Shown here in pieces: positions 17,119 through 56,400 of a stretch of 64,000 nt of DNA (position 1 is the stretch's first letter; the number at the start of each line of letters is the position of its first letter). Where the stretch lies: IMG/VR virus record IMGVR_UViG_3300033153_008341; one strand, written 5' to 3'. Both the position numbers and the translations under genes were made by a program. This DNA is from a virus. The notes beneath the pieces are model-generated. The model was not told the DNA's origin. It made no database searches and saw only the letters and a list, made by a program, of their open reading frames with translations.

Positions 17119-17381
17119 GGGGTTCACCACGTATTTCGCTCATAAATGGCTAAGTGTACGGGAGTGAAGTCCTTTCAACCTTTCACCTTCGCTTCCGTAT
17201 TACTTAGTCGCCAAATGGTCGCGTGAAACTTTCACTTGCTTCGTTTCGCGTGTGTCTTGCTTCGTTTCGCGTGTGTCATGTAAAACCGAATTCCGTGCGG
17301 TAAGAATGGGCAGAAAAATTTTGGAGCGAAAAATTACATAAATCGGAAAAGGCAAAGAAAAAACGGCCAGGAAAAAAAATT
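17119..17381. promoter_or_regulatory. 262-bp non-coding region with a 21-bp tandem repeat and a palindrome (candidate regulatory region or origin)
   Basis: Largest ORF-free gap in the plus-strand array. Contains the palindrome GTGAAAcTTTCAC (17223-17235), a perfect tandem duplication CTTGCTTCGTTTCGCGTGTGT x2 (17235-17276), recurring TCGCGTG and CCTTTCA words, and an A-rich tract before the next gene. Confidence 0.45.
17235..17276. repeat. perfect 21-bp direct tandem repeat (2 copies)
   Basis: cttgcttcgtttcgcgtgtgt repeated head-to-tail. Confidence 0.9.
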
Positions 17382-18227
17382 ATGAGAAGAATAACACTTA
17401 GACAACTTCAAGCAATTGGTAGGAAGTTTTGTAAAATAAACGCATCTCCCGCCAGATATTATAATAAAAAAGTAGGGGAATTGATTATAAAAAGAAACTG
17501 TAGTGCTGGGGTGAATTCAAGCTACTTTGTTAAGTACAAAGGGTATGAAGTATTTGTCAAGAACTGTGAAGACTATAGATACAGTGAGCAAACAGAGCTG
17601 AACTATTCTATATTAAATGAAATATTAGGCTTCTCAATTGTACCTAAAACAATCTTAGTCCCAGATACAAAAATAATAGTCCAAGAAAAAGTATCTGGTA
17701 GAACCTTTGCACGCTTAGAGTGGGTAACAGACCGCACAAGAAAACAAAGACAAAAAAGTATAAAGGACTTTCTTAAATCCCAAAACCTTTCAGAGTGGAT
17801 TTTCTTAGATGGGTTATTTTACAGTTCAGACAGACATTCCAACAACATGATGTATTCTTTTCGAAACAAGGTCTTTAGAGTTTGGTTAATAGACAATGGG
17901 TTTTCTTTACACACAAATAACAGATATTGGGATGATGGGGAACTCGAAAGTATAATAGATAACCATGACATAAATAACCCATTCAAAAATTGGAAATTTC
18001 ATCCTAAAACACAAAAGTCGATAACAAATTGGCTCTTATCCTTTGGTCCTAAGCCATTCACTGTTAAATGGAAAAGAGTTTTTTTAATTGAGATGACAAA
18101 CCTGTTAAATTTAAGAAAAGCTCCTACGGGATATAATCGATTTGAATCGTTCAAAGCAGGAATGAAAAGGATTCAACATATGTACAAATCAAAATTCACC
18201 TCAATACAAGGAGATAAATATAGGTGA
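17382..18227 (+). CDS. PI3K/PI4K-like atypical protein/lipid kinase domain protein
   Basis: Catalytic-loop-like YSSDRHSNNMMY (compare PI3K GDRHsdNIM, DRHxxN) followed by LIDNGFS (compare IDFGH metal-binding motif). Upstream G-rich loop, EVFVKNC (VAIK-like Lys) and ELNYSILNEILG (alpha-C Glu) are in kinase-typical order. Confidence 0.55.
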   Translation: MRRITLRQLQAIGRKFCKINASPARYYNKKVGELIIKRNCSAGVNSSYFVKYKGYEVFVKNCEDYRYSEQTELNYSILNEILGFSIVPKTILVPDTKIIVQEKVSGRTFARLEWVTDRTRKQRQKSIKDFLKSQNLSEWIFLDGLFYSSDRHSNNMMYSFRNKVFRVWLIDNGFSLHTNNRYWDDGELESIIDNHDINNPFKNWKFHPKTQKSITNWLLSFGPKPFTVKWKRVFLIEMTNLLNLRKAPTGYNRFESFKAGMKRIQHMYKSKFTSIQGDKYR

Positions 18228-37044: not shown

Positions 37045-38007
37045 CTATACCTCACTTAATTTACTCCTTATTTCATTCAACATATCAGGGTTGGCTTGCA
37101 ATAAGTCAATGGCATTCTCCTTACCTTGACCTAAACGATTCGAATTATAACTATACCAAGTCCCCGACTTATCTATCACGCCCTGTTTTGTTCCCAACTC
37201 TAATATCTCTCCAGCTACACTTATACCCTTATTAAACTTGATAGCAAATTCTGCTTCTTGAAATGGGATGGCTGTTTTATTTTTCACAACCCTAGCGCGA
37301 ACTCTCACTCCTTTCGTTTGCTGGATTTCTTTTAGGGAAGATATTTTACGAACATCAACTCTTGTACTACAAAAATATCTAAATCCAGTCCCTCCGGCAG
37401 TGGTCTCTGGATTACCGAATACAACCCCTATCTTATAGGTAATCTGATTCACATAAATGATTGTAGTATCATGTCTAGCCGCAATAGGAATAACTCTCCT
37501 CAAATGTTGTCTGTTTAAACGGGCGGCTAAACCCATATGAGAGTCACCTGGGTCACCCTCCAATTCTGACTTAGGTAACAAAGCAGGTATAGAGTCAAGT
37601 ATGATTAAAGAAATCTCCCCTGTGTCTCCTAAGTGCTCAATCACATCGAAAGCTTGTTCAGCACAATCAGGTTGGGAAACGTATAACTGATCAATATCCA
37701 GACCCAAATTTTGTGCATAAGAGGGGTCAAAAGAATGTTCAGTGTCAACTAAAAGGACAGGCCCAAACTTCTGTGCTTCTACCATAGCATGAATACACAA
37801 GGTTGTTTTGCCAGAGGATTCGGGTCCTGAAATTTCGTGCAACAAACCCTTAGCAAAACCACCACCCAAGGCACGATCTAAACCAATTGAGCCACTAGAA
37901 AGTCTTTCTCTCCCTACAATAGCCCTGTCATGTAGCTGTATAACCACAAAATCTCCATGTGCTTTTTTGAGATCTTCTATTCCTTCTTCTAATTTACTCT
38001 TTTCCAT
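37045..38007 (-). CDS. recA: RecA recombinase
   Basis: Walker A GPESSGKTT, LIILDSIPAL, ARLNRQHLRR, YVNQI, and GNPETTAGGTGFRYFCSTRVDVRK (RecA loop 2 / L2 region). Confidence 0.95.
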   Translation of the reverse strand: MEKSKLEEGIEDLKKAHGDFVVIQLHDRAIVGRERLSSGSIGLDRALGGGFAKGLLHEISGPESSGKTTLCIHAMVEAQKFGPVLLVDTEHSFDPSYAQNLGLDIDQLYVSQPDCAEQAFDVIEHLGDTGEISLIILDSIPALLPKSELEGDPGDSHMGLAARLNRQHLRRVIPIAARHDTTIIYVNQITYKIGVVFGNPETTAGGTGFRYFCSTRVDVRKISSLKEIQQTKGVRVRARVVKNKTAIPFQEAEFAIKFNKGISVAGEILELGTKQGVIDKSGTWYSYNSNRLGQGKENAIDLLQANPDMLNEIRSKLSEV

Positions 38008-41000
38008 CTATCTTCTCTGATACCTTAAAGGTTGAAATTCTTCCATTACTACTAACTTCAATTACACTTTGTGCCACATCTTTCAACTCTGTAATATGGG
38101 TGATGAACAATACCCTGTTAAAAATTTCACCCAAACGTTTGAAGATGTCTTTCACAACCACCTTGTTTTCATCATCTAAAGCTCCCATCCCTTCATCAAC
38201 AATAAACAACTCAACCATACTACCCATACGTAAAGACAGGAGGTGAGCCATGGCCGCGCGGAGAGCCAAGGAAACCAAGACTAACTCCGAACCAGATGCC
38301 TCCAAAACGTCGCGTTTTCCTTTAGCATCTGATATGTAGATACTAATTTCATCACGACTACCACCACTTGACAAGGTCTTGTATGAGTCAATGGAGATAG
38401 AGATCATACCATTTGTAGTCTCCGCTAGCAGATCTTGAGCAAACTTCTCAATGATTGGTAGAGCCTTATCAACAATCCCAAAGATCACACCAGTCTTACT
38501 CACTAAGTCTGTGTACTTGTTAGTGTATAATTGATAATCCTCTATTCGTTCTCTCCGTTCTTTCTCCTTTTCTACTTGTTCGCTTAGTGTCCTGATATCA
38601 GTAATACCCTGCTCACAACGATACACCTGGGTCTCATAGTTCTTAGTCTTTTTGTTGCACTCAGTTAAATCCAAACGAGTATCGGCCAGTTCTTTTTTAT
38701 GCCTATCAATCGTGGCTATCCTGGTTGCCAATTCAGATCGACGAACAACCATAGAATCCCTACGGTGGAAGAGATCATCCTTTTGTAAGCCGTATGCCAC
38801 CAGTAACTCCATTATGTTTTCTAGTATATTAACACCGGAGGACAATTTTTGTTCCATTTCTTTCCATTTATTTTGTGTTTCTTCCTTGTGTAAACCAACC
38901 CACTCCATGTGTTTTTGCTTATCATAGGGAGAAGACTCCAGAAGGGACTCTAAATGGATAATGCGGTCCTTAACATCCGACACTTTTAGAAGATGTTCTT
39001 TGATCTGGTTCTCTATTATCTCATTAGTTTCTTCAAGCTTAATCCGTACCTTGCTTTTTTGCTCTTGGATTCTGGCATTCAAGGGACAGTCAGCCTTGGA
39101 ACAATCCAGTAATTTCGCGTCCTCAATCTGACCAATCAAAGAGCCTCTGGCGGTTTCCATGGACTTCAAAACGTCTTTGTGTTCCGCCTCCAGTTTTTCT
39201 ATATCACGCTTAAACGCACTGATTTGATTACGTCTTTCATTATTCCGAACGATCTCCTCAGAGGCCTCAGCTAATTTTTCTTGGAACTTCTGCTGTCTCT
39301 GTAGACCTCTGGTAATAACAGACCTATCAGCTAAAATTCCCTCCATTCGTTCTTGTTCAATCCTTTTAAGTTTGATCTTATATCTAAGGCCTTCAGTCTC
39401 TTCTCTTATCTTACCCAACTTTACATCAAGCTCTTTGTATTCTTCCCCCATCTCTTCATAGCTGTGAATATTTTTGGACAACTCTTCGATGTGGGTTAAC
39501 AAACGTCCCTGTACCACCTTCTCGTTATACAGGAGCCTGTTAAACTCTTCCAGTAATTCATGTGGCTTACTATCAACTAGGTTGTTTAACTGCTCCGTGT
39601 AGGCTGTTAACCTACCTTGGGACTGTTGTAACTTATCACGAATTTCCTTCTTCAACAAGTTAACCTCTGAAACTCTCTTATCCAACACATCTATCTGAAG
39701 ACAGTCCAAGACGATCTTTCTCCTGTCAGCGGGTTTCTTTTCCACCAAGAGATCAATCTTGTTTTGCGGGGAATAGACAGTAGACACAAACACATCGAAA
39801 GTACCTACTAATTTTTCTATGTTAACTTGAGTGGTCTTAATATCAGCCCCACTTATATCAATCCAATTTTCTTCAATCATTTTGGATAACTTAAGTATAG
39901 TCCCAGTCTTTGCTCGAATTCGTTCAATCTTGTACGGACTATTATGGGAAGTGAAATGTAACTCAACACTACATTGAGTTTCTTCGTTTCGAATTACAGA
40001 CTTGACATCTTTGTTTCTTAAAGTAATACCAAATAATGCCCATACAATAGACTCAACCAAAGAACTCTTACCGGTTTTGTTGGGGCCAAATACACCAACT
40101 ACGGGACTAAGTTCGCCAAACACAAGTGTTGGTGTCTCTGGACCAAAACACTTAAAGTTAGAAACCTTAAGACTATCAGGCTTAAAATTGATCCCTTTAT
40201 CTTCCTCCACCAAGTGTTTCTTTTTAAGCCTAGCCTCAACAACTTCTGCAACTTTCTTAACTCCTGGGTTAAACTTGTGATCATCAATATACTTAAAGAT
40301 TAAGTCCTTAATAGTATGCTGCTGGAAATTTTCAAATGAGATAGTACCGGATTGTTTGATCTTTTTATACTGTGGAACAATCTTGATGTCCTTAGCATTT
40401 TTGAATTGTCCACTAACCTTAACATGGTTTACTTCACCCGTTTGTTTCTGCCCTACTTTATACTTTACTCTGACACGAACATCAGTATAATCATACGTGT
40501 TATTTATACGACGTAGCAATTCCCTAGTTAACTCCGTTTTGTACGTACTAATATCCCCAGCATCAACCGTTTGATAAGGATACAACTGTGGTAGTTCCAT
40601 GAATTTAGGCTTCAAATCCTCCCACAGCACCCACCCAGTATTACTAGAGTCAGCAAAGTTCAACGGGGCTGGGCACCCAGGATATACCGCAGTACACTTC
40701 AGTTCTTCTCCCTCTTCAATGCCCTGATACTTGTGCAAATGCCCTGCCATAACAGCATCAAACTGTGACCAGAAAACCTTAGACATAATTACATCTTTAC
40801 CAACACCTATAGCTTCTTCTGATGCTAAGTAACTGTCACTGATGTTAAAACCCTCAAGAGTCCCATGGTAAATTAAGACATTCTTCTTGCTGGGATCTAA
40901 AGTAAAAGCATTAAGCACTTTTTTGTTAAGGTGTAGCACACTAGCATCAGCAGCACCAACATTAACTAGCTCTTTCTTGGATGGGTACCCAAACATATGG

Positions 41001-41353
41001 AACCTGTAATTATCAATATCAACGTACTCCCCAATTGTGCCATAAACCTTCAGCAACGAGTCATTGGTAAAGACAGCAGAAAGGGAATCAACCTTGATCT
41101 CAGACATACTGGCGTCATGGTTCCCAGGAATTATGATTATGGAATACCCGTCAAGAGTTTCCTTGAAAAATTTACGTGTTAATTGCACCTGCTTCGGACT
41201 AAGTTTGTCGCGATGAACAAACATGTCACCGGCAAACACAATCAAGTCGGGATTTTGTTCCCTAACTTGTTTTCCTAACTGTCCAAGTATTTTTTCAAAC
41301 TCTTGTATCCGTGCGTCACTTATATGGATGTCAGCAAAATGTGCTACTTTCAT
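37994..41353 (-). CDS. fused SbcD-SbcC (Mre11-Rad50-like) nuclease-ATPase, single 1119-aa polypeptide
   Basis: N-terminal calcineurin-like phosphoesterase motifs DIHISD, AGDMFVH, GNHD. At about residue 410 the Rad50 Walker A FGPNKTGKSS. Long coiled-coil middle. C-terminal ABC signature LSSGGSRDEI and Walker B LFIVDEGMGALD. Confidence 0.85.
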   Translation of the reverse strand: MKVAHFADIHISDARIQEFEKILGQLGKQVREQNPDLIVFAGDMFVHRDKLSPKQVQLTRKFFKETLDGYSIIIIPGNHDASMSEIKVDSLSAVFTNDSLLKVYGTIGEYVDIDNYRFHMFGYPSKKELVNVGAADASVLHLNKKVLNAFTLDPSKKNVLIYHGTLEGFNISDSYLASEEAIGVGKDVIMSKVFWSQFDAVMAGHLHKYQGIEEGEELKCTAVYPGCPAPLNFADSSNTGWVLWEDLKPKFMELPQLYPYQTVDAGDISTYKTELTRELLRRINNTYDYTDVRVRVKYKVGQKQTGEVNHVKVSGQFKNAKDIKIVPQYKKIKQSGTISFENFQQHTIKDLIFKYIDDHKFNPGVKKVAEVVEARLKKKHLVEEDKGINFKPDSLKVSNFKCFGPETPTLVFGELSPVVGVFGPNKTGKSSLVESIVWALFGITLRNKDVKSVIRNEETQCSVELHFTSHNSPYKIERIRAKTGTILKLSKMIEENWIDISGADIKTTQVNIEKLVGTFDVFVSTVYSPQNKIDLLVEKKPADRRKIVLDCLQIDVLDKRVSEVNLLKKEIRDKLQQSQGRLTAYTEQLNNLVDSKPHELLEEFNRLLYNEKVVQGRLLTHIEELSKNIHSYEEMGEEYKELDVKLGKIREETEGLRYKIKLKRIEQERMEGILADRSVITRGLQRQQKFQEKLAEASEEIVRNNERRNQISAFKRDIEKLEAEHKDVLKSMETARGSLIGQIEDAKLLDCSKADCPLNARIQEQKSKVRIKLEETNEIIENQIKEHLLKVSDVKDRIIHLESLLESSPYDKQKHMEWVGLHKEETQNKWKEMEQKLSSGVNILENIMELLVAYGLQKDDLFHRRDSMVVRRSELATRIATIDRHKKELADTRLDLTECNKKTKNYETQVYRCEQGITDIRTLSEQVEKEKERRERIEDYQLYTNKYTDLVSKTGVIFGIVDKALPIIEKFAQDLLAETTNGMISISIDSYKTLSSGGSRDEISIYISDAKGKRDVLEASGSELVLVSLALRAAMAHLLSLRMGSMVELFIVDEGMGALDDENKVVVKDIFKRLGEIFNRVLFITHITELKDVAQSVIEVSSNGRISTFKVSEKIDGKE

Positions 41354-42505: not shown

Positions 42506-43784
42506 GACTAACCAAATCTATAATCTGGTTGACTTGTCCATAACGATTCTTAGCGAGAACAATTTGTGTATGTTTTTTACTGAATTTTGCTTCCTCATTA
42601 AACTTATCAGGACAATGCAACATGAGAGTAACAGCGGAATCATGGCTAGTTGATTTACAATCTCTAAGATCGTTAACTGTTACTGGTAACCCACTCTTCC
42701 TTTCATCGGGGTTTGTGTTTACCTGCTGTAGAATTAGCACTGCAACATCTGATTTCTTAGCCATCGCCACCAATTTCTTTGAAGACATCCCGATTTCACG
42801 TTCTCGATTGCCTTCCCTCATTGATTTGTCAGTAATCAAATTGATATGATCAATAATAACCAACTTCAAACCAGGATATTTTAATTTAGCAAAGTGAGCC
42901 TTAGCTAAAATTTCGTTGATATCAAAAGTCTCATCTTCAATAAGTAACCTATCACCCTGCTTCAAATAAGTAAGAGCTTGCTTAGCCTTGTCCACCTCAG
43001 ATTCTTTCAAACTACCGGCCATCAAGCGCATAATTGGGACATTACTTCTTAGGGCAATGAACCTGTTTATGAGTTTCTTCTTGTCATCTTCCAACATAAA
43101 GTACAAAACTTGGGCGTCGGCCCCTATAACGGAGTTACTTATCTGAACGGCCATTTGAGTCTTACCGTCAGATGTCCCACCACCTAACACCCACGTATTC
43201 TTTAGTTGTAGTCCCAAGGTATGAAGATCCAAAGTCTTGTACCCTGTAGGTAAATCAATTACACCTTCTATACTTTTATACTTGTTATAGCGCTCAACCT
43301 TTTGTTTCAAGTCTTTAAGATATTCACCTTCAATACTACTCACAGTGTCTATATTTATGCCGTGGTTGATTGTGACCTGTAAAAGTTGAGCCTCCGCAAT
43401 ACGAACCAAGTCGTTACTCTTACTGTCCTGCATCACAGATTTGTGTTGTAGATATTCCCCTATCTGTTTAAGTTTATCCTTTCGGGATACCTCACACAAC
43501 TCTTCATAGATTAAATTTAGATCATCAGGGGCAGTTGTATCCTGCTCAATCAGCTCTATGATTTCTCTAACTAACTCATCATCTTTGAACTTAAACTTTA
43601 AATCTTGATACGTAGGACTTTTATTATCAATAAGATAGTCTACAATAACCAGATAGATTTCGTAGTATATCTTATCACTAAAATCATCTACAGATACCAT
43701 TTTGTCCAAAGACGTTAAAGCAGATAGATCATTCATAAAACTAGACAAAAATTGAATGTCTAACATTGATGTTGTATAAGCCAT
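42441..43784 (-). CDS. DnaB-family replicative DNA helicase
   Basis: Walker A VLGGGTSDGKTQMAVQ, Walker B LVIIDHINLI, and an N-terminal domain typical of DnaB. Confidence 0.85.
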   Translation of the reverse strand: MAYTTSMLDIQFLSSFMNDLSALTSLDKMVSVDDFSDKIYYEIYLVIVDYLIDNKSPTYQDLKFKFKDDELVREIIELIEQDTTAPDDLNLIYEELCEVSRKDKLKQIGEYLQHKSVMQDSKSNDLVRIAEAQLLQVTINHGINIDTVSSIEGEYLKDLKQKVERYNKYKSIEGVIDLPTGYKTLDLHTLGLQLKNTWVLGGGTSDGKTQMAVQISNSVIGADAQVLYFMLEDDKKKLINRFIALRSNVPIMRLMAGSLKESEVDKAKQALTYLKQGDRLLIEDETFDINEILAKAHFAKLKYPGLKLVIIDHINLITDKSMREGNREREIGMSSKKLVAMAKKSDVAVLILQQVNTNPDERKSGLPVTVNDLRDCKSTSHDSAVTLMLHCPDKFNEEAKFSKKHTQIVLAKNRYGQVNQIIDLVSHANVGRFVEGIPHEKKTTTKI

Positions 43785-45637
43785 TAAATTATCTCACAAG
43801 CGTCACCAACACATGCCGCGTTCTCTTGCCTCTTTGTGTAGTCACCGTCTTCTCTAACCTCTGATAGATCAACCGATTTTAACTTTCTAATCATCCTTTT
43901 ATAGGTTTCTTCATCAATTTGTTCATAAGGTGGTTGGATATAAGTATGGTCATCGTAAGGTAAAACTGCTAATGCTGTATAATTTTCCTTGTTCTCCCAC
44001 ATCCAATTACCAACTCTTTCCCACTCATTTGATTTGATTGTTACAGTGGTAGAAACATTGTTTGTGTTATGCCCTTTTACATGTCCACCCTTAACCCAAT
44101 TCCTGTATACTTTGACAACCCTAGTAAGTAATTGTAAAGCAGTCTCAGTTTTCATAACAGCATTTTCAGGTGCTTTTTGCGGAACACAAATTTTAGCCTG
44201 TATTGTGGGTTTGAAATAATCCTCTTCAATCAACTCTGGATGATGGGCTTGTAGGTATTTGTAGATGGCCTCAGTTTTATTCACAGTTATCCGTCTGATA
44301 TAATAAGGATAATGCCACGCATGTATACCACTTGAACAACCCAAAACCAAAGACGCTGTACCACTAGGTTTAACTGTTGTGCATCTTGAAGCCCAACGAA
44401 CCCCTATGAGATCAGCCACCCGTTTATTTTCTTCTATTACAATCTTAGCGGCTTCCTTCATATCTAACTCCACAACAATACCAGACGCTATACCCGTAAT
44501 CCCTACCCCAATGAGTGCGTCTCTCTCCGTAACCTCTTTCCAAACCTCTCGTAGATAATGAAAGCTAGTGTAAGCGGCCTGTAGTGTTCCGATAAAGGCG
44601 GCGGCTTTAGCTCTTGCGTTAAAGTCTTCTTGTGATACTATGTTACTACCATTGATCTCGGTAAGATTACAGAACTGATGTGGCTTCAATGATATTTCAG
44701 CACACGGATTCGTCCCTACCTCTTGATCATTGGTAAAGAAGATTCCAGGTTCACCACTCCGGCTGTTCTGTATCTTTTCCCAAAGCTTTCTGAATGATTC
44801 TTCTTGAATTTTGTGACGTAAAATAACAACAGAGTTATTTGCTAACGCCCTTTGTGGGTTCTTCTCATACCAATTCCCAAATTTACATGTTAACATCTCA
44901 TGATCACGGAAAGAGAATAAAGAGATAAAGCTTGAACGGCGAATACCACCCGACAAAACCGCATCAGCCAAATAACAATTTATATCATGAACCTCAATAG
45001 GCCTGAGTTGATCTCCTGATACCTTTCGATCAAGGGCACGTTTAATCTGGTGAAGACAATGAACTAACGGCTCTGGACCTGGGGCTACACCACCAGATGT
45101 TTTTAATGGGGAACCTTTTGGACGAATATCAGAGAAGTCAAAATCTGGTACTGACTTGCGTGGTCCCATATATGACTCAATCAACACCCGAACAGCATCA
45201 GCCCAACCTTCTATGGAATCTGCAACCAAATAACGCCTAGACTTTTGGGGCTTTATAATCTCCGGTAACTTTTCTACGTGGTGTAGTTGAACCGAATACC
45301 CCACCCCTGTGCCACTAAGAAGCAAGAACATGATCTCACTAAACGCATCAATATGATCCATGTGGATAAACGAACAATTGTATCCCCTGACTGGGTTTAA
45401 TTCAATAGCCTTGCCAGCAAACTGCATACTCCTCATTGAAGGTAAGAGTTTCTTATCATACACAAATTTATAGACTTCCTCAATTTCCTCCTTAAGTGTT
45501 GGAAACCTTTTGATGTGCATGTTTTTATTTCTAGTTACTAATTCTTCCCATGTTTCTCTTCGACCTAACTTCTTGTCATATTTTGAATACTTCATGAAGA
45601 CAGTTATATCGCTCAAAATTTGTATACTTCTATCCAT
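43784..45637 (-). CDS. nrdJ: ribonucleotide reductase, class II (adenosylcobalamin-dependent, NrdJ-like)
   Basis: Active-site motif TNPCAEISL (NPCGEI), a C-terminal Cys pair CVGDAC, and 617 aa. No adjacent small-subunit (NrdB) or NrdD/NrdG-type gene. Confidence 0.75.
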   Translation of the reverse strand: MDRSIQILSDITVFMKYSKYDKKLGRRETWEELVTRNKNMHIKRFPTLKEEIEEVYKFVYDKKLLPSMRSMQFAGKAIELNPVRGYNCSFIHMDHIDAFSEIMFLLLSGTGVGYSVQLHHVEKLPEIIKPQKSRRYLVADSIEGWADAVRVLIESYMGPRKSVPDFDFSDIRPKGSPLKTSGGVAPGPEPLVHCLHQIKRALDRKVSGDQLRPIEVHDINCYLADAVLSGGIRRSSFISLFSFRDHEMLTCKFGNWYEKNPQRALANNSVVILRHKIQEESFRKLWEKIQNSRSGEPGIFFTNDQEVGTNPCAEISLKPHQFCNLTEINGSNIVSQEDFNARAKAAAFIGTLQAAYTSFHYLREVWKEVTERDALIGVGITGIASGIVVELDMKEAAKIVIEENKRVADLIGVRWASRCTTVKPSGTASLVLGCSSGIHAWHYPYYIRRITVNKTEAIYKYLQAHHPELIEEDYFKPTIQAKICVPQKAPENAVMKTETALQLLTRVVKVYRNWVKGGHVKGHNTNNVSTTVTIKSNEWERVGNWMWENKENYTALAVLPYDDHTYIQPPYEQIDEETYKRMIRKLKSVDLSEVREDGDYTKRQENAACVGDACEII

Positions 45638-47274: not shown

Positions 47275-48090
47275 ATGTACGACGCATTCAAAAAACACCT
47301 AGAAGGCCTGGATTCTAGCCCTAACACCATACGAAACTACACCACAGACCTAAAAATGGCTCAGAGACACGGGATAATTACCGAAAATCTGGCCTCAATG
47401 GACCTCAAAAAGCTGGTCAATTTAGACGTAAAGCCTAGAACCAAGCAGAGAATGAGGGCCGCAATACGGAGATACGCCAGGTTCTGTGCAGGTACTGGTA
47501 TTATCAGTCAGGTGCCAGCCGAACTGACCAACTTGGACCTGCCAAAAATAACCAGGAACATCCCTAGAGTCACCCGTTCAGGGAAGGCTAAGGAGTTGCT
47601 GGCTAAAATTGATGACGCGGAATTGTCCCTAATCATTCACCTCTTGGCGACTACGGGATGCCGAATATCATCCCTTGCGGACCTCGAAATTGAGGATTTT
47701 GGTACTAAATCTGTCTTGTTCAGGACCTCCAAAGGGGGTAAACCGTATGTGTCGATCCTTACCCCCGACACCAAAGAAGCATTCCTAAAGCACATCAAAC
47801 ATAGGGCTTCTGGATACGTTTTTTTAACTAATGCTGATCGCAAAGCTACCCCTGATAGCCTACGTGGTAAGCTCTACGCTGGACTTGGTGAAGATTATGT
47901 AAATCCCCACAGTTTTAGACACGGAGTAGCAACAGAGCTTATTGAAAATGGTGTAGATCTAACAGTTGTAAAAACCTTCATGAACCACACCAGCGTTACA
48001 GTTACAGAGACCTATGTCCACTTAGCAGATGAATACATAGTGAAGAAACTCAAAGGTAAACACCCAATGTTAAGTGATTCTGTTGATTAG
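47275..48090 (+). CDS. tyrosine site-specific recombinase (integrase / XerD-like)
   Basis: Catalytic residues in order: TGCRISS (Arg), HSFRHGVATEL (His-x-x-Arg), TETYVHL (Tyr nucleophile). 271 aa with no large N-terminal arm-binding domain. Confidence 0.85.
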   Translation: MYDAFKKHLEGLDSSPNTIRNYTTDLKMAQRHGIITENLASMDLKKLVNLDVKPRTKQRMRAAIRRYARFCAGTGIISQVPAELTNLDLPKITRNIPRVTRSGKAKELLAKIDDAELSLIIHLLATTGCRISSLADLEIEDFGTKSVLFRTSKGGKPYVSILTPDTKEAFLKHIKHRASGYVFLTNADRKATPDSLRGKLYAGLGEDYVNPHSFRHGVATELIENGVDLTVVKTFMNHTSVTVTETYVHLADEYIVKKLKGKHPMLSDSVD

Positions 48091-51000
48091 ATCAATAAGT
48101 TGAATGGTAGGGCTGGTTTTACTCAAAAATACAGCCTTACCACCCAATGAATAGGTTTCTTCAGCAATACCTAAACCAGCAGGGTCTTTATACTGGTCAG
48201 CTGGGATGTAAAAAACTATATCGTCAGAATGTGTATTCATCATTCGTGGTCTTATCTGGAATGCCCCATACCTATAGTTTGAACCTGGATATACATTGTT
48301 ATTACTCAGAATCAAGTCAAAGTTATTACCAGAGATAATTGACCCAGCACTAGTAAATGTTTTGTAATATGTATAGTTATTATTAACAAGCCTGTACCCT
48401 AACGTAAATTGATCCTGCTGTGAGTATCCTACCCCTACCCAAGTCACCCCTCGAAAAGAGTTCAACTCAGAACGAGTAAACTCAGCGTCAACACCATATC
48501 CACCATATGTTGATATTCCGTATGTTGCTACAGTTACTGCTCCCGTTGTTGCATAACAAACACCATAAATAGTAGCCTCTGCATTTGCTGAATCACAATA
48601 TGCAAGTAGCATAGTACCAGAAGGACTCACATCAAAATCTAACGCTGTTAAATTACCTGAAACATGAGCCAACTTGTCATATGATTCCATCACTGACCCA
48701 TATATATTCAACTTGAATATTGTAAAGTGACTAGCTAAAGCACTTTGTTTCGACATATAATAATATCTGTTGTCGGAGTATCGCAACGCCCCAACGTAAC
48801 CATCAGCATCAGTGCTTAGGAGAGTAGGATTACCCCAGTATGTATGCAGAGCATCGCCGGTGAGATCTCTATTGGTTGAAATATCAGAGAAAGAAGAGTA
48901 AGCAAAACTAGAATCCGTTGAAGCAAACAGGATCATTAAAGTAGTGTCGGTGTCGGTGGCTGGATATGGCCTTGCTATTAACGGGTAACCCCCATTATAG
49001 TTCTCATCAAACGTACTATCTAAAGGTCGCGATTCACTGGATGTTCGATTAAAAGTGTCAGAAATCCAACCAACATGAAGATAGGTAGCAAAGCTAGGGT
49101 TTTGGTGAAGCTGGACAAAATAATAACCAATGCCTTTATCATCAATTGTCCCCATAGTTAAGTTGATTGCCCACTGTGTACCTGTTCCCAATAATCCAGG
49201 GGTAGCTTCTATTCGTAGTTCTTTAGTTACTAGATAGATATTCTTATCTCTAAATTGTAGCTCATTTGTTGTAATAGTGTCAGTTTCAATCTCATTGGCA
49301 GTGATAGCCTCAGCGGCAACGTTCTGTGTAATAACCGAATCAGCCTCAATCATATGGCCACGAATTAAATTACCCTGTAAATAATCTGCTGTTACAGACT
49401 TGGTATCATAGTAAGCTCTAGCTGGGGCCTCATCCTTTTCTTCAAATTGAACACCATCTATATGAAGTGTTGCACTAGTAGTTAAAGAATCATATCCAAG
49501 TGTTATTGATATATTAGTAATAGATGGGGTTGCAATATAAAATGTTCCGGTGACTCTTTCCCAAGTTGTTCCAATATCAGAGTAGATAGAGGATTTAAAT
49601 TTTACTAGTTGTGTTTGGTTATCGCGTGCAAGAATGTTTATTTTCAAATCTTCTAAATCATTCACACATCTAGCATAACAACTAAAAACATATTTTCTTG
49701 TGTTTCCAACATATGGTAATACATGTATATCATTTTGTGCTATATAGCTATGACTAGCCTCTGGTGGTATTTCTACATAGTGTGTACCATGATAGGCATC
49801 CCCACTCTTGACATTATATCCATTATTATATTCTACTTTAGCCAATGGTGTTGAGCCATATGTTTGTGGTTTCCAACCATGTGCCCATACAGTGCCACTA
49901 CTAGTTCGATAAACTCTTTCAAAACTAGAGTTGTCTAACATATTTCGAAATTTATCTTTATAATCCGCAACAGGGAAAAGGTATTTATAGTCAGAGATAG
50001 TTGAAAAATTACCTGCAACATCTTCAATTTGGGTGTAATAAATGTAGTCTTTCCAAGGATCAACCTCTTTGTCCACATAAAAGTTAACACCTGCATCTAC
50101 TGAAGTGATGGTAGCAAAGGTAGTTCCTTTAAACGCCACTGTTTCTTCAAGATAAAAAGCGTCACCAGCAAGACCCACCACAGTTTTATAATGCACCTGT
50201 AAACGCATAAGTGTATTAGCACTAGAGTGAATATATGAAAAATCTTGAACTCTCCAATCTACTGATGTATCAACACTTTTATTCCACACAGATGCAACTA
50301 CAGACCCATCACCTGCTTCAATCAATTTTAACCCATAAAAAGGGTTGAGATTAGAAGCATCCCTATATCTAGAAAATGCTGTTATCGTTTCTCCATCGCG
50401 CACTTTAAAGGTATTGCTATTTGCTATATATACAGCTGTCACACCATCTGCTGGGATAATGATAAAACAATGGTCGCCATGAAAAGGAATTGAATCAATT
50501 ACAGCCTTGGCGGCGATATTATCAGCGGTGGCAATGATCCAATGTTCAGCATCAGTATTTGCTTTCATCTCTTGGAATATGGGGTTGTTATTCAATACCT
50601 CAGTTTGAGATCTAAATATATGGGTTTTATACAACCCTGATAAACCATCTGCAATCTTACTATTATCCCACACTACTCTGTTGGCAGCTTGAAGACCTTC
50701 AGACCTTTCTCTATAATTGAAATACTTAAATTTTTGGCTATCCCACGTAGGCTGTTGTATATCTATCGGAACATGTAGAGTTTCATCTGAACCACTAAAA
50801 TTCTCCTCGATATCTTTTACTCGAAACTTTGCCCACCAATTAGAACCAGTTGAAAGTGTTAATTGACCATTAAATTCCGTCCATGCAGACCAATCACCAG
50901 AGACCTTGGTTGAGTAAAAATATGAAGCTATCGCATTTGTACCTTCATACATCAACGAAGCGGTGATAGCTTGATTAAACCAACCATTAGCATTAGGCTC

Positions 51001-53478
51001 TGTGGGTGATCCTCCAGCCAACAAGATAGCACTAAATTGCAAGTTAGCAATATCAGCCAAAGGAGTACCCGTAGCCGATATGGACCCTGAAGCGTTACCA
51101 AAAGTATCTACGGCTATGATATATCTGCTAGCTTGAGCAGTCGAAGTAGTCAACTCAGCATACGTATTGATTGTGCCTGTACCAGAAACCTCGGCTAGTA
51201 TATTGGTCAAAGCACCATCAGTATATATTTTGATTGATTTAAGATCATCAGCTGTCGGATTAGTCCATTGATGATATAACCCACCAGTGTTACCGGTTAA
51301 AGTATAACTTGTTGGGGTTTTAGGGGCTGTAGTATCACCAGAAAGAACACTAGCGGGGACGGAGAAGCTAGACCTGTTTCGTAATGGAGAATTATCGTAG
51401 GCGTCTAGGTAATATGTATAGGTTGTGTCAGGTACAATCTCAAAATCATCCCAAGTTATGATAGCGCCATCGCTTGTTTGTCTTGGTCGATCAATAATAT
51501 GTACAGACTGATTGATATAAATAGATGAGCCGGCACTAGCAGCAAACGTTGGAACAGTTCGAACAAGTGTATAAGGGGTAGCAAACACAGCATAGTTGAT
51601 ATTACTAGACTCCATCGTAGCTGCAGTAAATCCATGTATCCGTCTGTTCAAAGAGACTATAGTACCACCAGTATTGATCGTAGCGTAATACCCTAAACTG
51701 AAAAAGCTAGCAGCAGCAGGGAACTCAAACCCAGGGTAACTTCTATCAGACTTCGTGCCTAACGTGGTATTCTCTAAGTAATAAAAAGGCCCTTGATCCA
51801 ATTGGAGAGTAGAGATAGTAGAAAGTTGAGCTTTTGCGTTGTCATAGAATTTAATTTGAAAAAGCTCACTGAAGTTTCCAAACTTATTAGGGGTTTGTTC
51901 AAGGGAAATACCACCGAAATCTATGGTAGCGTTGTTATACGGACTTAGTGTAGCTGGTATATTAAACTGTAAGTATGCACCGGAAGATGAACTAGGAGTA
52001 AAGGCAACCCCACTACGTGAATATCCAACCCCCGTCATAAGTGTTGGGCTAGTGAATAACGTCGCATCCGCTAAACTACGAATTGAAAAACTATATGGTT
52101 GAGAAATGTGGGATGATGCCATAACACTCAAGTGATAAGTAGCAGCAGTACTCACGTAAAAACTCAATGTTGCATTTTGGGACTTGACCTGAGAAGAATC
52201 CCCAGAAGATCGAATAGTTCTCAACACCCCCAAGCTTTTATTGTGGAGGGTGGACAAAAATGTTGTTAACCCAGTTTGTGTCCACCGGCTTGGGTTAGAC
52301 TTATACCCATCAGCATTATATGGTACTGTGTCAAGTAACTCATTTGATGTGTAAAGGTCAACGAAGTATAAACTAGCAAGGGTGTTAGAAATTAAAGTAG
52401 AAGTGATAGAATACGTACCTGATGTAGCCCTAGTGTGTAGGAAAAAATGAGAACCACTTCTTTTAGATGTCACGTCTGCCTTAATTGTTCCTGCAGTTAA
52501 CTCCCAATCAGTGTTCGCATCAGCAAAAATTGGGTTACTAATATGGTTCTTAGGAACATGCATTACCCTAGATACAGTAGGGTTAAGCGAGGTTACCCCA
52601 GACGTAAAGGAGATAATATCACTAGAGTTTAATGTGCTGTTGGGCAAAACCGTGAAGAGGTGCTGGTCTTCGGTGTTGTTAGAAGTGGTTAACTTAGGTA
52701 AAGTTCCCGGTAAACCAGATTGAATTGTTATCCCAGTGTCATATTTTTCTGACCGGTAAATTCCATTCCCAGCAAAATCTATCGACATATCCCTATTCCA
52801 ACGAAGGGTATTTTTACCACGAGCAACTTCACCTTGAACCACATTATACTGTATGGAGGGGGTAGCCCAAACAGGGACAGAAGGAGCTGTAACATCCAAA
52901 TGTCTCCACGAGGTGATATTGGAATAGTCACTGCCAAAAGCAAAATACCCACCCACGTTGGTATAGTACGTAACTATAATAGTGTTCCACGTATTTGGTT
53001 CAATAGGAATACTTATATTCTTACGCTCTCTACTAGTAGATGATTCATGTAGCAAAGTCAAGGTCGAGTCATTCTCATCTTTCCTGTAAATACGCACATT
53101 ACCAAACGCTTTAGTGTATGCTAAACTAAGAGAAACAGCGTCCACCGAATACAGTTGAACACCCAACATTCTGTTAGTATAGGGCTCATTATGCGGGAAA
53201 ACAGTGGCCTGTGACTCCAACACATCCCATACTATATGACCACCGGCCTCTTTGAATTCCTCAGGAGAAACCCCTTTGGGTCTTTCTGTGCCACTTTGTC
53301 GTTGCAACAAATAAATTCCTGATGTCCAAGACGGATTTACTTGCTGAACGGTTCGTTCTATCTTTGGCTCTTTCCTATTGCTAACACCTACCACTTTTGC
53401 TTGTGTTAAGTCAGTCTCAAGAGACTTGCGAACCTGTTCCTCAATTTGTTGTTTGATTATTTCCAATATATTTGACAT
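48070..53478 (-). CDS. tail fibre / host-recognition structural protein (1802 aa)
   Basis: Very long Ser/Thr/Asn/Gly/Tyr-rich ORF, typical of beta-structure-rich fibre or adhesin proteins. Last gene of the tail block, 3' of the large tail protein. Confidence 0.5.
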   Translation of the reverse strand: MSNILEIIKQQIEEQVRKSLETDLTQAKVVGVSNRKEPKIERTVQQVNPSWTSGIYLLQRQSGTERPKGVSPEEFKEAGGHIVWDVLESQATVFPHNEPYTNRMLGVQLYSVDAVSLSLAYTKAFGNVRIYRKDENDSTLTLLHESSTSRERKNISIPIEPNTWNTIIVTYYTNVGGYFAFGSDYSNITSWRHLDVTAPSVPVWATPSIQYNVVQGEVARGKNTLRWNRDMSIDFAGNGIYRSEKYDTGITIQSGLPGTLPKLTTSNNTEDQHLFTVLPNSTLNSSDIISFTSGVTSLNPTVSRVMHVPKNHISNPIFADANTDWELTAGTIKADVTSKRSGSHFFLHTRATSGTYSITSTLISNTLASLYFVDLYTSNELLDTVPYNADGYKSNPSRWTQTGLTTFLSTLHNKSLGVLRTIRSSGDSSQVKSQNATLSFYVSTAATYHLSVMASSHISQPYSFSIRSLADATLFTSPTLMTGVGYSRSGVAFTPSSSSGAYLQFNIPATLSPYNNATIDFGGISLEQTPNKFGNFSELFQIKFYDNAKAQLSTISTLQLDQGPFYYLENTTLGTKSDRSYPGFEFPAAASFFSLGYYATINTGGTIVSLNRRIHGFTAATMESSNINYAVFATPYTLVRTVPTFAASAGSSIYINQSVHIIDRPRQTSDGAIITWDDFEIVPDTTYTYYLDAYDNSPLRNRSSFSVPASVLSGDTTAPKTPTSYTLTGNTGGLYHQWTNPTADDLKSIKIYTDGALTNILAEVSGTGTINTYAELTTSTAQASRYIIAVDTFGNASGSISATGTPLADIANLQFSAILLAGGSPTEPNANGWFNQAITASLMYEGTNAIASYFYSTKVSGDWSAWTEFNGQLTLSTGSNWWAKFRVKDIEENFSGSDETLHVPIDIQQPTWDSQKFKYFNYRERSEGLQAANRVVWDNSKIADGLSGLYKTHIFRSQTEVLNNNPIFQEMKANTDAEHWIIATADNIAAKAVIDSIPFHGDHCFIIIPADGVTAVYIANSNTFKVRDGETITAFSRYRDASNLNPFYGLKLIEAGDGSVVASVWNKSVDTSVDWRVQDFSYIHSSANTLMRLQVHYKTVVGLAGDAFYLEETVAFKGTTFATITSVDAGVNFYVDKEVDPWKDYIYYTQIEDVAGNFSTISDYKYLFPVADYKDKFRNMLDNSSFERVYRTSSGTVWAHGWKPQTYGSTPLAKVEYNNGYNVKSGDAYHGTHYVEIPPEASHSYIAQNDIHVLPYVGNTRKYVFSCYARCVNDLEDLKINILARDNQTQLVKFKSSIYSDIGTTWERVTGTFYIATPSITNISITLGYDSLTTSATLHIDGVQFEEKDEAPARAYYDTKSVTADYLQGNLIRGHMIEADSVITQNVAAEAITANEIETDTITTNELQFRDKNIYLVTKELRIEATPGLLGTGTQWAINLTMGTIDDKGIGYYFVQLHQNPSFATYLHVGWISDTFNRTSSESRPLDSTFDENYNGGYPLIARPYPATDTDTTLMILFASTDSSFAYSSFSDISTNRDLTGDALHTYWGNPTLLSTDADGYVGALRYSDNRYYYMSKQSALASHFTIFKLNIYGSVMESYDKLAHVSGNLTALDFDVSPSGTMLLAYCDSANAEATIYGVCYATTGAVTVATYGISTYGGYGVDAEFTRSELNSFRGVTWVGVGYSQQDQFTLGYRLVNNNYTYYKTFTSAGSIISGNNFDLILSNNNVYPGSNYRYGAFQIRPRMMNTHSDDIVFYIPADQYKDPAGLGIAEETYSLGGKAVFLSKTSPTIQLIDLINRIT

Positions 53479-53480
53479 GT

Positions 53481-56400
53481 CTATTCCTTGTAAAGCTGAA
53501 CCCCAATAAGTTTGTTATAAGCCACACGATTATAGTCTTGAGCCCCTCTATAAAAAATAGGGTAGTAAATAGCCTCTCTGCCTAATTCTGGTATGTCTCG
53601 ATATGTGTAAGGACCAGTAGAAAATTCCCTCAATTGTAAAGCCCAGTTGACAGTCCCATCATGGTACCCTCTTGTTTGATTATTGTCTGTAGCTAAGAAA
53701 GAAGGTGCTCTATAAAAGACACTTCGACCCAAGACATGCTTACGACCCGAAAAATCGGTAATGGTTAATTTTAAAGCGTGAACATGGGTCATTCCTACTA
53801 AATCATATATTGCCTTAATTTTATTTTCGGCCTCTGGGGTTATATAAGGCAACTCAGGAGCACCCAAATACACTTCAATATCCCGATCTTGGTTGATAGT
53901 CCATGTATGGCTCTGTTGAATTTCCAAAGGGTCTTCGTATACTTGTACTAAATCAACCTTACCTGTACGATAAGTGCTATAGGTTGGATTCTCATAATCA
54001 TCACCGCCGGGATTCATCCAATCCTCTTGTGTCCACATAGCATAATGGTATAAAAATACAAGTATCTTTCTTTCAACTGTTAAATTTACAATCCTGTCAA
54101 CATTAAACTTACTCTTAACAACATACCTTAACCCTTTATTGTCATTTTCAGTTCCTGAATAATAATAGTGGTAATCTGGATGCATGTCTCGAATTTTTAG
54201 GTCTATACCTGGGGCTCTCCTCCAGCTCTCACTTAAAGAGGTATAGTCAATCCCTGAAGCCCTTGCTCCACCACCATCTGTGTCAGTATGTCTAAATTCC
54301 TCAAAAATACCATCGCTACCCCATGAGATGTTGTACCCTTGTGGGCGCATCACTGTATGTATTTTTCTCAAATTTGGGATACTTAGAACTTCCGTAACCA
54401 ACTGTTTAGTAGGGTCTCGATATTGTACTTCAAAATAGAATTGACCATATTTTTCTTCTGACTTATTCCACACATAATAACCTTGACCTGGACGATAAGG
54501 AGCAATATTCACTGACTGATGGTCACTATCAATCCACTTGGCCCGAACAGAAGATATGTCGGGCTTCCATCTATAATTTTTATGGTTGTTATTAGTGAGT
54601 CTAGCTAAGCTGTTTGGGTCGTCACCATATGAGGGAAAATCATATGAGTGTCCACCTTGTCTTCCATAACTACCACAATTCTCTTGATTATGCCTACCAG
54701 CCGCATCAATCATACCCCAAGTATAAGAATATTTCCCAGGCTGGAAACTATCCCACCCAGCAGTATCAGTATAAGTGTTAGGGGTACCTGTTAAGATGTC
54801 TACAATTACCCCCATATGGTTCCGAACAAGTACTTTTACTTGACCAGAGAATAAAAGATCAAACTCAACAGCGGGTTGTACATTAAACTCCTCCGTGACA
54901 TATGGACTAATTTGCGTCTCTATAAATTTAGCGTCAGGATTACCAACAAGAACCGAAAAATCAGCTATAGTAGAAGTATTGAACATGCCTCTTGTCAAAT
55001 CGGTAAAAGTGATAGTAGCCCACGCAGCCTTTTTAATGGGGTTGATGTATGTGTTCAGCGTAGAGAAAACCACACTACCATATTTAATCACCTCATTATT
55101 AAACTTGATATAACCAGAGTATGGCATAGCCCTCTGCAACTCAGCCTGTGTAGGTACATTCCCTTCTATATCATTCCAACGATACAGGCCAATTATTGTA
55201 TCATCACCAGGATCTGGGTAGTTATTCATGCTATACTCAGTAGACTCAACCTTCTCTTCTTTTTTAATCGGGATACCTACATTATACACTTTAGGATTCA
55301 GGAAAACTGTATTGCCCAAACGAGTTAGACTGGGAATTGGGTATGAAATAAAACTTTCCCAAGGCTCAAAAGACTCTAAAGTTAAACTAGTAGTGTACCT
55401 ACCATTGGCACCATACACATCATTTATTCCACTAATATAAAAATCATGCATGGTAGCCATAGAAGACGTTTTTATATCTTTAACCTTGATTTTATCCCCG
55501 ACCTCTAACAACGGTTGACCAATCATATCTAATTGTGGTGTTATAGCTTTCTCAAATGTATTAAAACGTTTAGCTGTTTCACTCGCCAACCACAAAGCTT
55601 TACGTTCTGTAGCCACCTTAGGCTCAATAATCATTGTTTGAAGTCGACGACCAACAAAATGGTTGCTAGACAAAGAACCAATCGATTGCCTATCTATTGC
55701 TCGACCAAGTACATGCTCCTGTACAGGATTCTTAGGATTGATAACCTTCTCTGGTTGTTCAGGATCAACACTCAAGTTTGATGACACGCCCCGTAATCTT
55801 CCAACTACCACCACATCATTTCTCACATTACCGGCATCTGATCTGATTCCAGCATTAGTAACTACTGCTAAATTAGGTGATTCGTCACCAGTATAATAGG
55901 TATCAACCTCATCATCATAATTTTTGTCATAAATCAACAAGGAATTGATAGAAACTGTGGACGTACCTTTTGTGGTCAAATTTAGTGAATAACTACCATA
56001 GTTATAATCACCTAAACCTAACACACATGGGTTATACCCAACAGTATCGTCGGTACCATCAAGGAAAGACCGGGCTGTTGTGTGATTAGTATGATAATCT
56101 AAACTAGCTACTTGACCTAACGTAGGATTAGACAATTTGATATGAATGGTGCCTGTATTAGGTCCTACATCAAACATTAGCTTAGCTGTTCGTCCAATAT
56201 AGGTTGCAACAATTTTGGAACCCTCTGTTTGGGTTGCTAGAGAAAAAGCATAAAATTTGCTAGCACCAATAACCTCTGTCCAGTTACCAGTAACCAACAT
56301 TTCATCTGTTGATTTAGTTTGTGCCGGTCCTTTTACTGACTCTTGATAAAAATCCCCATCATTGTTAAAACCGTAAGAAAATCCGTAATTGTCCATCAAA

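Follow-up and report, generated by a model that had tools for sequence, protein, structure and literature searches.

Type II PI4-kinases are anchored to membranes through a palmitoylated CCPCC insertion, and the CCPCC motif defines the family. In PI kinases, the loop after the metal-binding motif sets the lipid specificity. Type II PI4-kinases are generally regarded as eukaryotic enzymes, and very few phage-encoded kinases are known to have been studied, T7 gp0.7 being the classic example.

Kinase domains have been described in polyvalent proteins, which are large multi-domain proteins of phages and prophages, and stand-alone versions were found as well (Iyer, Burroughs, Anand, de Souza, and Aravind 2017, PMC5512222). 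The kinase family in question is described as Ser/Thr/Tyr-kinase-like, without any of the C-terminal subdomain, with a Glu residue that precedes strand 2, and with an insert that separates the catalytic His and Asp residues (PMC5512222). These kinase domains were predicted to phosphorylate host proteins like the T7 kinase, and comparative evidence led to the proposal that the MuF-fused and polyvalent domains are effectors packaged in the virion and injected together with the DNA (PMC5512222). In T4, Alt is injected from the head, while ModA and ModB are not (PMC5512222). Literature searches on phage PI3/4-kinase-like proteins yielded no characterized member, just a Mimivirus PI-kinase and the paper on polyvalent proteins.

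The DNA analyzed here, referred to as the window, is the whole 64,000-nucleotide stretch of an IMG/VR virus record (IMGVR_UViG_3300033153_008341). It is a fragment of a tailed-phage genome that encodes a class II-type ribonucleotide reductase, a DnaB-like helicase, an SbcC-like nuclease, a ligase, clamp-loader-like ATPases, and a tape-measure-like protein; no tRNAs were found in it. The ribonucleotide reductase is nearest to that of Microcystis phage Mel-JY01 (60.6%), and for the DnaB and tape-measure proteins the identity to any cultured phage is only about 25%. Judging from these proteins, the window has only distant relatives among the cultured phages.

The kinase gene and its active site

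An earlier note on this DNA had reported an ORF for a PI3K/PI4K-like kinase with the motifs SSDRHSNNMMY and LIDNGFS, a glycine-containing loop, a VFVK lysine, and an alpha-C Glu, lying directly downstream of a repeat-containing non-coding region. All of these are present as described, the non-coding region being a 263-nt spacer with a 21-nt tandem duplication. The features of the locus are given below, together with their conservation in two alignments of the family domain, A1 (14 copies) and A3 (a broader set of 18 sequences including IMG/VR members).

17119..17381 (no strand): upstream non-coding spacer of 263 nt, in which a 21-nt unit is perfectly duplicated in tandem (17235-17276)
17382..18227 (+ strand): kinase gene, stop codon included, with an ATG start, for a stand-alone type-II-PI4K-like protein of 281 aa
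17499..17522 (+ strand): glycine-containing loop CSAGVNSS (residues 40-47) between beta1 and beta2 (model strands 34-38 and 46-52); G43 invariant in A3; aligned with GSSGSYFVK of PI4K2A
17550..17561 (+ strand): beta3 VFVK (57-60) with the predicted ATP-binding K60, invariant in A3; aligned with AVFKP of PI4K2A; FKP or WKP in the relatives
17595..17597 (+ strand): alpha-C glutamate E72 (model helix 68-82), invariant in A1 and A3 and present in 29 of 29 aligned copies
17637..17690 (+ strand): IVPKT strand (86-90) to hinge VQEK (100-103); P88 and Q101 invariant; aligned with IVPRT and FQLFVEG of PI4K2A
17808..17846 (+ strand): D143 and the putative catalytic loop DRHSNN (150-155; nt 17829-17846); D143, D150, R151, and N155 invariant and H152 nearly so; aligned with LDYIIRNTDRGNDNWL of PI4K2A
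17889..17900 (+ strand): IDNG (170-173), the putative equivalent of the DFG metal-binding motif; D171 and N172 invariant; aligned with AIDNGLAF of PI4K2A

The SSDRHSNNMMY and LIDNGFS motifs are residues 148-158 and 169-175 of the protein, and the spacing from D150 to D171 is 21 residues. Written as a degenerate DNA pattern, DRHxxN-14 residues-IDNG has one match in the window, at nt 17829, and none in 100 dinucleotide-preserving shuffles. There is a single copy of the kinase domain in the whole window. The N-terminal helix is conserved in two stand-alone relatives, P0003 and P0005, and reads MRRITLRQLQAIGR in the query, MATRISMRQLMAAGRR in P0003, and MVSKMSVRELQAFGRQ in P0005. Since this helix is common to the three proteins, the ATG start of the query is supported. 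The spacer upstream of the gene is presumed to be regulatory; searches within it gave no Rfam match, no sigma-70-like promoter, and no intrinsic terminator.

The columns E72, V87, P88, Q101, D143, D150, R151, N155, D171, and N172 are invariant in the 14 copies of A1, and K60 is nearly invariant. In the 18 diverse members of A3, the invariant residues are G43, K60, E72, P88, Q101, D143, D150, R151, N155, D171, and N172, which by alignment correspond to the complete set of catalytic residues in a protein-kinase-like enzyme. The IMG/VR relatives were obtained by scanning with a degenerate DRHxxN-IDNG motif pattern; in columns outside this selection pattern, E72 is kept in 29 of 29 sequences, Q101 in 28 of 29, and D143 in 32 of 32. 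As the query motifs coincide with invariant columns of the family alignment, they are not chance matches. Certain copies in the tandem protein P0004 have DRN in place of DRH and IDNN in place of IDNG.

Fold and comparison with type II PI4-kinases

By itself, the query matches Pfam PF00454 at 14.4 bits (E 0.035), which is below the Pfam gathering score of 27.1, and the match covers the correct profile region (116-174), at the catalytic loop. PF00454 is matched individually by 11 of the 14 domain copies at E <= 0.1 (best E 1.9e-7). Its gathering score is exceeded by eight of ten IMG/VR relatives (27.2-42.5 bits) and by P0002, a protein with tandem copies (115 bits). When the PDB was searched with profiles, A1 found PI4K2B at E 4.9e-7, and A3 found PI4K2A (5.5e-17), PI4K2B (1.4e-15), and Fam20C (3.4e-10). 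A3 matched Vps34, p110-alpha, and ATM only marginally (E 0.03-0.2), and this holds for the comparison with PI3K classes I-III, type III PI4K, and PIKK, from which the query also differs in having no accessory domains (no helical PIK or FAT, C2, RBD, or FATC domain was found in it). A search of 5.8 billion proteins with A3 recovered eukaryotic proteins named 'phosphatidylinositol 4-kinase type 2'. A phosphatase, the sole match of the query alone in a phmmer search of the PDB, was rejected as spurious.

The alignment of A3 with PI4K2A consists of three collinear stretches that span the G-loop GSSGSYFVK, AVFKP, alpha-C, IVPRT, FQLFVEG, LDYIIRNTDRGNDNWL, and AIDNGLAF. Because PI4K2A itself reads AIDNGLAF in this collinear alignment, the IDNG motif is a hallmark of type II PI4K. 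In contrast, the His residue of DRH is a PI3K/PIKK-like feature, replaced by Gly in PI4K2.

An AlphaFold2 model was built on the 14-sequence alignment (pLDDT 80.2, pTM 0.83, at a depth of only these 14 aligned sequences). It is a confident model, in which a helix at the N-terminus is followed by an N-lobe of five strands plus alpha-C and by a four-helix C-lobe, and the query is entirely explained by the kinase core and the one N-terminal helix. Residues 181-200, a putative substrate or activation loop, are of low confidence (pLDDT 56-58). The model from the query sequence alone had a pLDDT of 35 and was not used. When the alignment-based model was compared with the PDB by Foldseek, the top match was PI4KII-alpha, and all 50 matches listed were kinases or pseudokinases. 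The second-tier structural neighbors are mostly protein kinases, namely CtkA, Fam20C, HipA-like proteins, actin-fragmin kinase, CotH, and PIKKs. The SCO1664 family (TIGR03843), Fam20C, CotH, HipA, CtkA, and actin-fragmin kinase all score clearly below PI4K2, and the query has neither the N-terminal segment of Fam20 nor its disulfides.

The earlier note had held that the absence of a kinase fold, or the loss of the motifs in close homologs, would speak against its interpretation, and had proposed a profile search and a Foldseek search as the check. Both searches gave a PI3/PI4-kinase-type fold and the motifs are kept in all homologs. Thus, the kinase interpretation is supported. The label PI3K/PI4K-like is right about the fold and can be narrowed, as the protein is specifically related to type II PI4K (PI4K2A/B), while PI3K, Vps34, and PIKKs are marginal by sequence. 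The query has the features of the PI3/PI4-kinase superfamily, which are DRHxxN, a metal-binding Asp about 20 residues further on, the beta3 Lys, the alpha-C Glu, and, in the model, the bilobal fold. The profile alignments and the model together indicate that the protein is a homolog of the eukaryotic type II PI4-kinases reduced to a catalytic core of about 280 aa.

The comparison with PI4K2A and PI4K2B (PDB 4hnd, 4hne, 4pla, 4wtv) shows significant profile similarity over the G-loop, beta3, alpha-C, the hinge, the catalytic loop, and IDNG. On the other hand, the query is 281 aa long, while the crystallized catalytic-domain constructs of PI4K2A are 340-380 aa, or about 100 residues longer. The query has no CCPCC palmitoylation insert or membrane-binding elements, and its DRHSNN loop is of the PI3K/PIKK type, while PI4K2 has DRGNDN. 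The loops after IDNG are unrelated, and the query comes from a virus of prokaryotes. Lacking the CCPCC insert, having another catalytic loop, and being unlikely to act on lipids, the query should not be classed as a type II PI4K proper, as PI4K2A/B and yeast Lsb6 are.

[quoted passage not shown] Compared again by description only, the query family differs in that it keeps a four-helix C-lobe and is specifically PI4K2-like.

Relatives and their domain architectures

An exhaustive HMMER scan of 1.84 billion representatives revealed seven real relatives. P0003 and P0005 are full-length stand-alone proteins with 31-34% identity to the query, and P0006 and P0009 are more distant stand-alone relatives. 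In P0008 (874 aa), the kinase domain is C-terminal, in a layout like that of fusions to MuF-like minor head proteins. P0002 (3027 aa) and P0004 (1678 aa) each have 5-6 tandem copies of the domain; those of P0002 are intact, and a gene for a major head protein is located downstream of its gene. P0007, a PYRIN-repeat protein from the same scan, was rejected as spurious, having no match to the seed profile and unrelated Pfam matches. The minimal, stand-alone, basic clade of the query, P0003, and P0005 thus has three members in the 1.84 billion representatives.

The motif scan of IMG/VR gave 24 loci (L005-L028), of which 23 are true members (hmmsearch E 1e-6 to 1e-24); the other, L016, is a chance match to the motif. 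In nearly all of the members, the kinase is the C-terminal module of a protein of 580-1100 aa, and the N-terminal parts are Phage_Mu_F, head-morphogenesis, or minor-head-protein domains. Pfam Phage_Mu_F is matched above its cut-off by L007, L008, and L015, and PHROG head families are matched by L007, L008, L009, L013, L015, and L028. The structure neighbors in BFVD include proteins of uncultured Caudovirales that UniProt automatically names 'PI3K/PI4K catalytic domain-containing protein' (a name borne by A0A6J5L1V5 and A0A6J5MJB0), fusions to portal and head-morphogenesis proteins, and giant proteins annotated as ART in the cultured Mycobacterium phage Onyinye and Gordonia phage GodonK. The query itself matches phrog_3162, a PHROG family of unknown function, at E 4.4e-7. 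Since the domain is already visible in automatic annotation (UniProt/BFVD, precomputed Pfam hits, and PHROG 3162), the finding is not categorically new.

Three further relatives have other contexts. P0011 is a fusion of an intact 2H phosphoesterase (HVTV twice, with a faint match to Acb1) to the kinase, and its gene is found on a phage-like contig, with an Acb2/Tad1-hairpin gene four genes upstream and a NUDIX giant directly downstream. The occurrence of this Acb1-like 2H-phosphoesterase fusion near an Acb2/Tad1-like gene is a hint of a non-protein target. P0012 and a PLD-family gene form a pair flanked by IS elements on a contig of 266 kb, and P0013 lies within a non-structural block of a phage.

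The reach of the searches differed greatly with the query used. A word-indexed homolog search of 5.8 billion proteins with the query alone found nothing beyond the query itself, and with a single protein or A2 as the query no relatives were found in viral or metagenome contigs. A tblastn search of 50,697 deposited phage records with the query gave no match even at E <= 1. The kinase domain is nearly absent from deposited phage genomes. To this extent the earlier view that such an enzyme is unusual in a phage holds true, but uncultured tailed phages carry the domain repeatedly, fused to MuF, portal, or head proteins.

The kinase modules of the phage MuF, portal, and polyvalent proteins (L005-L028, A0A6J5L1V5, A0A6J5MJB0, and phrog_3162) belong to the same domain family as the query and have identical catalytic residues. 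While these modules are C-terminal in virion-associated proteins of 580-1480 aa, the query is a stand-alone protein of 281 aa encoded in a non-structural block, and no MuF or portal domain was found in it with Pfam and PHROG. Lacking a MuF domain, it lies outside the class of MuF-fused effectors although it carries their effector module, and it works like a stand-alone paralog. Its gene lies in a plus-strand block of small ORFs, none of which has a Pfam or PHROG annotation. The window and the contigs of P0003 and P0005 (1.2 and 1.7 kb) have no conserved neighbor in common, so that there is no guilt-by-association for this clade.

Proposed role and alternative readings

Starting from the gene, its fold and homology, its intact and invariant active site, and the architectures and contexts of its relatives, I infer a catalytic activity, an expression timing, a substrate class, and a biological role for the protein. 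It is probably a small, active kinase. By analogy with solved PI3/4-kinases, K60 in beta3 and E72 in alpha-C would position ATP, the D150-R151-H152...N155 loop would perform the phosphotransfer, and N155 and D171 of IDNG would hold the Mg2+ ions. I consider it likely that the protein is a soluble, catalytically competent, ATP-dependent phosphotransferase of the PI3/PI4-kinase fold, which is made in the cell and phosphorylates a host or defense component early in infection, most likely on Ser/Thr residues of a protein.

By prediction, the MuF-like, portal, and giant 'polyvalent' fusions travel in the capsid and enter the cell along with the DNA. Because the query is a stand-alone protein encoded among small ORFs of the non-structural arm, it would be synthesized inside the cell and not injected, just as the early-made ModA and ModB of T4 differ from the injected Alt. 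It is the position of the gene among small ORFs that suggests early expression. Since its domain family is fused to head proteins in many uncultured phages, the query is a probable effector in the infected bacterium, and the context favors an injected or early effector. The phosphorylation of a host or defense component early in infection may then lead to takeover or counter-defense. The parallel with T4 is a functional analogy only, as the Alt and Mod proteins are ADP-ribosyltransferases and not kinases. The parallel with the T7 gp0.7 kinase, which modifies host proteins at the onset of infection, is also functional only, with no sequence relationship detectable in the searches run here.

By analogy with the T7 kinase, the substrate would most likely be a protein Ser/Thr residue. 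A protein substrate is favored because the second-tier structural relatives are mostly protein kinases, because the lipid-specific elements of PI4K2 are absent, and because the loop after IDNG varies in length and sequence across the family. No transmembrane segment is predicted in the query (the highest 19-residue hydropathy is 1.27), and its only Cys residues, at positions 17, 40, and 62, form no cluster. Counting against the reading as a protein kinase, the closest characterized homologs are lipid kinases. The query has a pI of 9.98 and a net charge of +25, and this high basicity (pI about 10) is common to P0003 and P0005, unlike most of the MuF-fused domains. The basicity may indicate a nucleic-acid, ribosome, or membrane-proximal target. 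Since the stand-alone clade is so strikingly basic, unlike most MuF-fused domains, its target may differ from theirs.

Four other readings were weighed and are given here in order of falling confidence. The kinase might act on a nucleotide, an RNA end, or another small molecule, and thereby inactivate a defense signal or heal RNA ends cut by host nucleases, alongside phosphoesterases. The fusion of a 2H phosphoesterase to the kinase in P0011 suggests such an activity, which I nevertheless regard as unlikely for the query.

A genuine lipid kinase, which would phosphorylate host phosphatidylinositol or another lipid headgroup and remodel the membrane in infection, is improbable. The type II PI 4-kinases are the best matches by both sequence and structure, and the high basicity could favor binding to anionic membranes. 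However, phosphatidylinositol is lacking in most bacteria, and the loop after IDNG is not only variable across the family but acidic in the query (net -3). Also against this reading are the scattered Cys residues, the lack of a hydrophobic segment, the shortfall of about 100 residues from the PI4K2A catalytic domain, and the DRH..N loop where PI4K2 has DRGNDN. Thus, lipid kinase activity of the query is unlikely.

It is very improbable that the protein is a growth-arresting toxin kinase like HipA, or a defense or superinfection-exclusion module carried by the phage, and not a takeover effector. The matches to PI4K2 are far stronger than those to HipA. The query has no HipA N-terminal domain, and neither the HipA_N/HipA_C features nor an adjacent HipB-type antitoxin was found; no conserved antitoxin-like or HTH partner adjoins the gene. 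The query has no match in PADLOC or NCBIfam, and the relatives have only weak PADLOC matches to PDC-M03A and PD-T4-6 that do not extend beyond the catalytic loop. Moreover, the dominant architecture of the family is a fusion to a virion head protein. Least credible of all is a pseudokinase or a structural or scaffolding domain that binds without phosphate transfer: the tandem arrays of 5-6 copies in P0002 and P0004 could suggest a structural or binding role and some P0004 copies have the DRN and IDNN changes, but the catalytic residues are all invariant in 18 diverse members including the query, and conservation is centered on the active site and not on surfaces.

A further possibility, which I regard as speculative and rather unlikely, concerns the family as a whole. 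Its target may be other than a protein (a defense second messenger, an RNA end, or a membrane lipid), which would be a new principle of counter-defense, and/or this prokaryotic-virus clade, which keeps DRH and has no membrane insert, may be ancestral to the eukaryotic type II PI4-kinases.

With this family, a second phage kinase family, unrelated to T7 gp0.7, is now defined well enough for testing. Its core resembles that of the eukaryotic type II PI4-kinases and has a complete predicted catalytic set, and it is often fused to proteins predicted to be packaged in the capsid. The stand-alone form of 281 aa is its simplest member, which makes it an obvious protein to express, to solve the structure of, and to use in the search for substrates. 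Should a host or defense protein prove to be the target, the kinase would add a new mechanism of takeover or counter-defense; a lipid or nucleotide target would come as a greater surprise. The family is also relevant to the prokaryotic ancestry of type II PI4-kinases.

Tandem and fused forms of the kinase domain

The kinase domain was found repeated within two giant proteins, and joined to or paired with other domains at several loci.
L004 75-9158: P0002, 3027 aa, with 5-6 tandem kinase-domain copies whose predicted catalytic residues are intact
L029 8001-9545: P0011, a 2H phosphoesterase fused to the kinase domain
L030 6404-9125 and L031 768-3489: conserved two-gene cassette, a 517-aa PLD-family (PLDc_2) protein followed by P0012
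L028 5656-8631: head-protein-kinase fusion, 992 aa, with an intein-like insertion between the head and kinase domains

P0002, encoded upstream of the gene for a major head protein, has an N-terminal module of about 330 aa with no assigned function, which is duplicated (residues ~1-330 and ~990-1330), and the linkers between its modules are rich in alanine and lysine. The other giant protein, P0004 (1678 aa), has five kinase-domain copies, some with DRN and IDNN. In the L028 fusion, the insertion matches Pfam Intein_splicing with an E-value of 1.4e-5, which is under the cut-off of that model.

The 2H phosphoesterase part of P0011 has two HVTV motifs, a match to Pfam 2_5_RNA_ligase2, and a faint match to Acb1. 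An Acb2_Tad1_hairpin gene (L029 3537-3902) lies four genes upstream of the P0011 gene, which is directly followed by a gene for a NUDIX protein of 1294 aa. P0011 and its neighbours look like a phage counter-defence island. On a 266-kb contig, the cassette encoding the PLDc_2 protein and P0012 (a kinase-family protein of 374 aa) has IS elements of the IS21, IS66, and IS3 types on either side; this cassette is a candidate defence or toxin module of bacteria, making use of the same kinase domain.

Other genes of the window and deposited phages

The window also has the following genes.
37994-41353, minus strand: 1119-aa protein, an N-terminal metallophosphoesterase-like (SbcD-like) region plus an SbcC-like ATPase
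43784-45637, minus strand: ribonucleotide reductase (RNR), with 60.6% identity to the Microcystis phage Mel-JY01 enzyme
48070-53478, minus strand: giant ORF, 1802 aa, zero Pfam matches
53481-57707, minus strand: giant ORF, 1408 aa, zero Pfam matches
58114-63681: tape-measure-like protein, 1855 aa (PhageMin_Tail), adjoining the two giant ORFs

The two giant ORFs may code for polyvalent proteins or for atypical components of the tail or virion. The 1119-aa product appears to be a single-polypeptide SbcD-SbcC fusion. The likeness of the RNR to that of Mel-JY01 could indicate a cyanophage link or a horizontally transferred RNR gene. Among deposited phages, the best identity of the helicase and the tape-measure protein is only about 25%. 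No tRNA genes were found within the window.

Upstream spacer and charge of the stand-alone kinases

The kinase gene of the window (17382-18227, plus strand) is preceded by a spacer which is large against its densely packed surroundings.
17119-17381: non-coding spacer, 263 nt
17235-17276: perfect 21-nt tandem duplication inside the spacer, CTTGCTTCGTTTCGCGTGTGT twice

The 21-nt repeat does not occur elsewhere in the window. Searches of the spacer gave no match to an Rfam family and no sigma-70-like promoter or intrinsic terminator. The spacer with its duplication may serve the transcription unit of the kinase gene as a regulatory element or as a site where proteins bind.

The stand-alone clade consists of the window kinase and its closest stand-alone relatives P0003 and P0005; all are extremely basic, with pI values of 9.6-10.1 and net charges from +15 to +27. 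In contrast, the same domain is mostly acidic or neutral when fused to MuF-like minor head proteins. The difference in charge suggests that the stand-alone kinases have a localisation or target other than that of the MuF-fused copies, such as nucleic acid, the ribosome, or the membrane.
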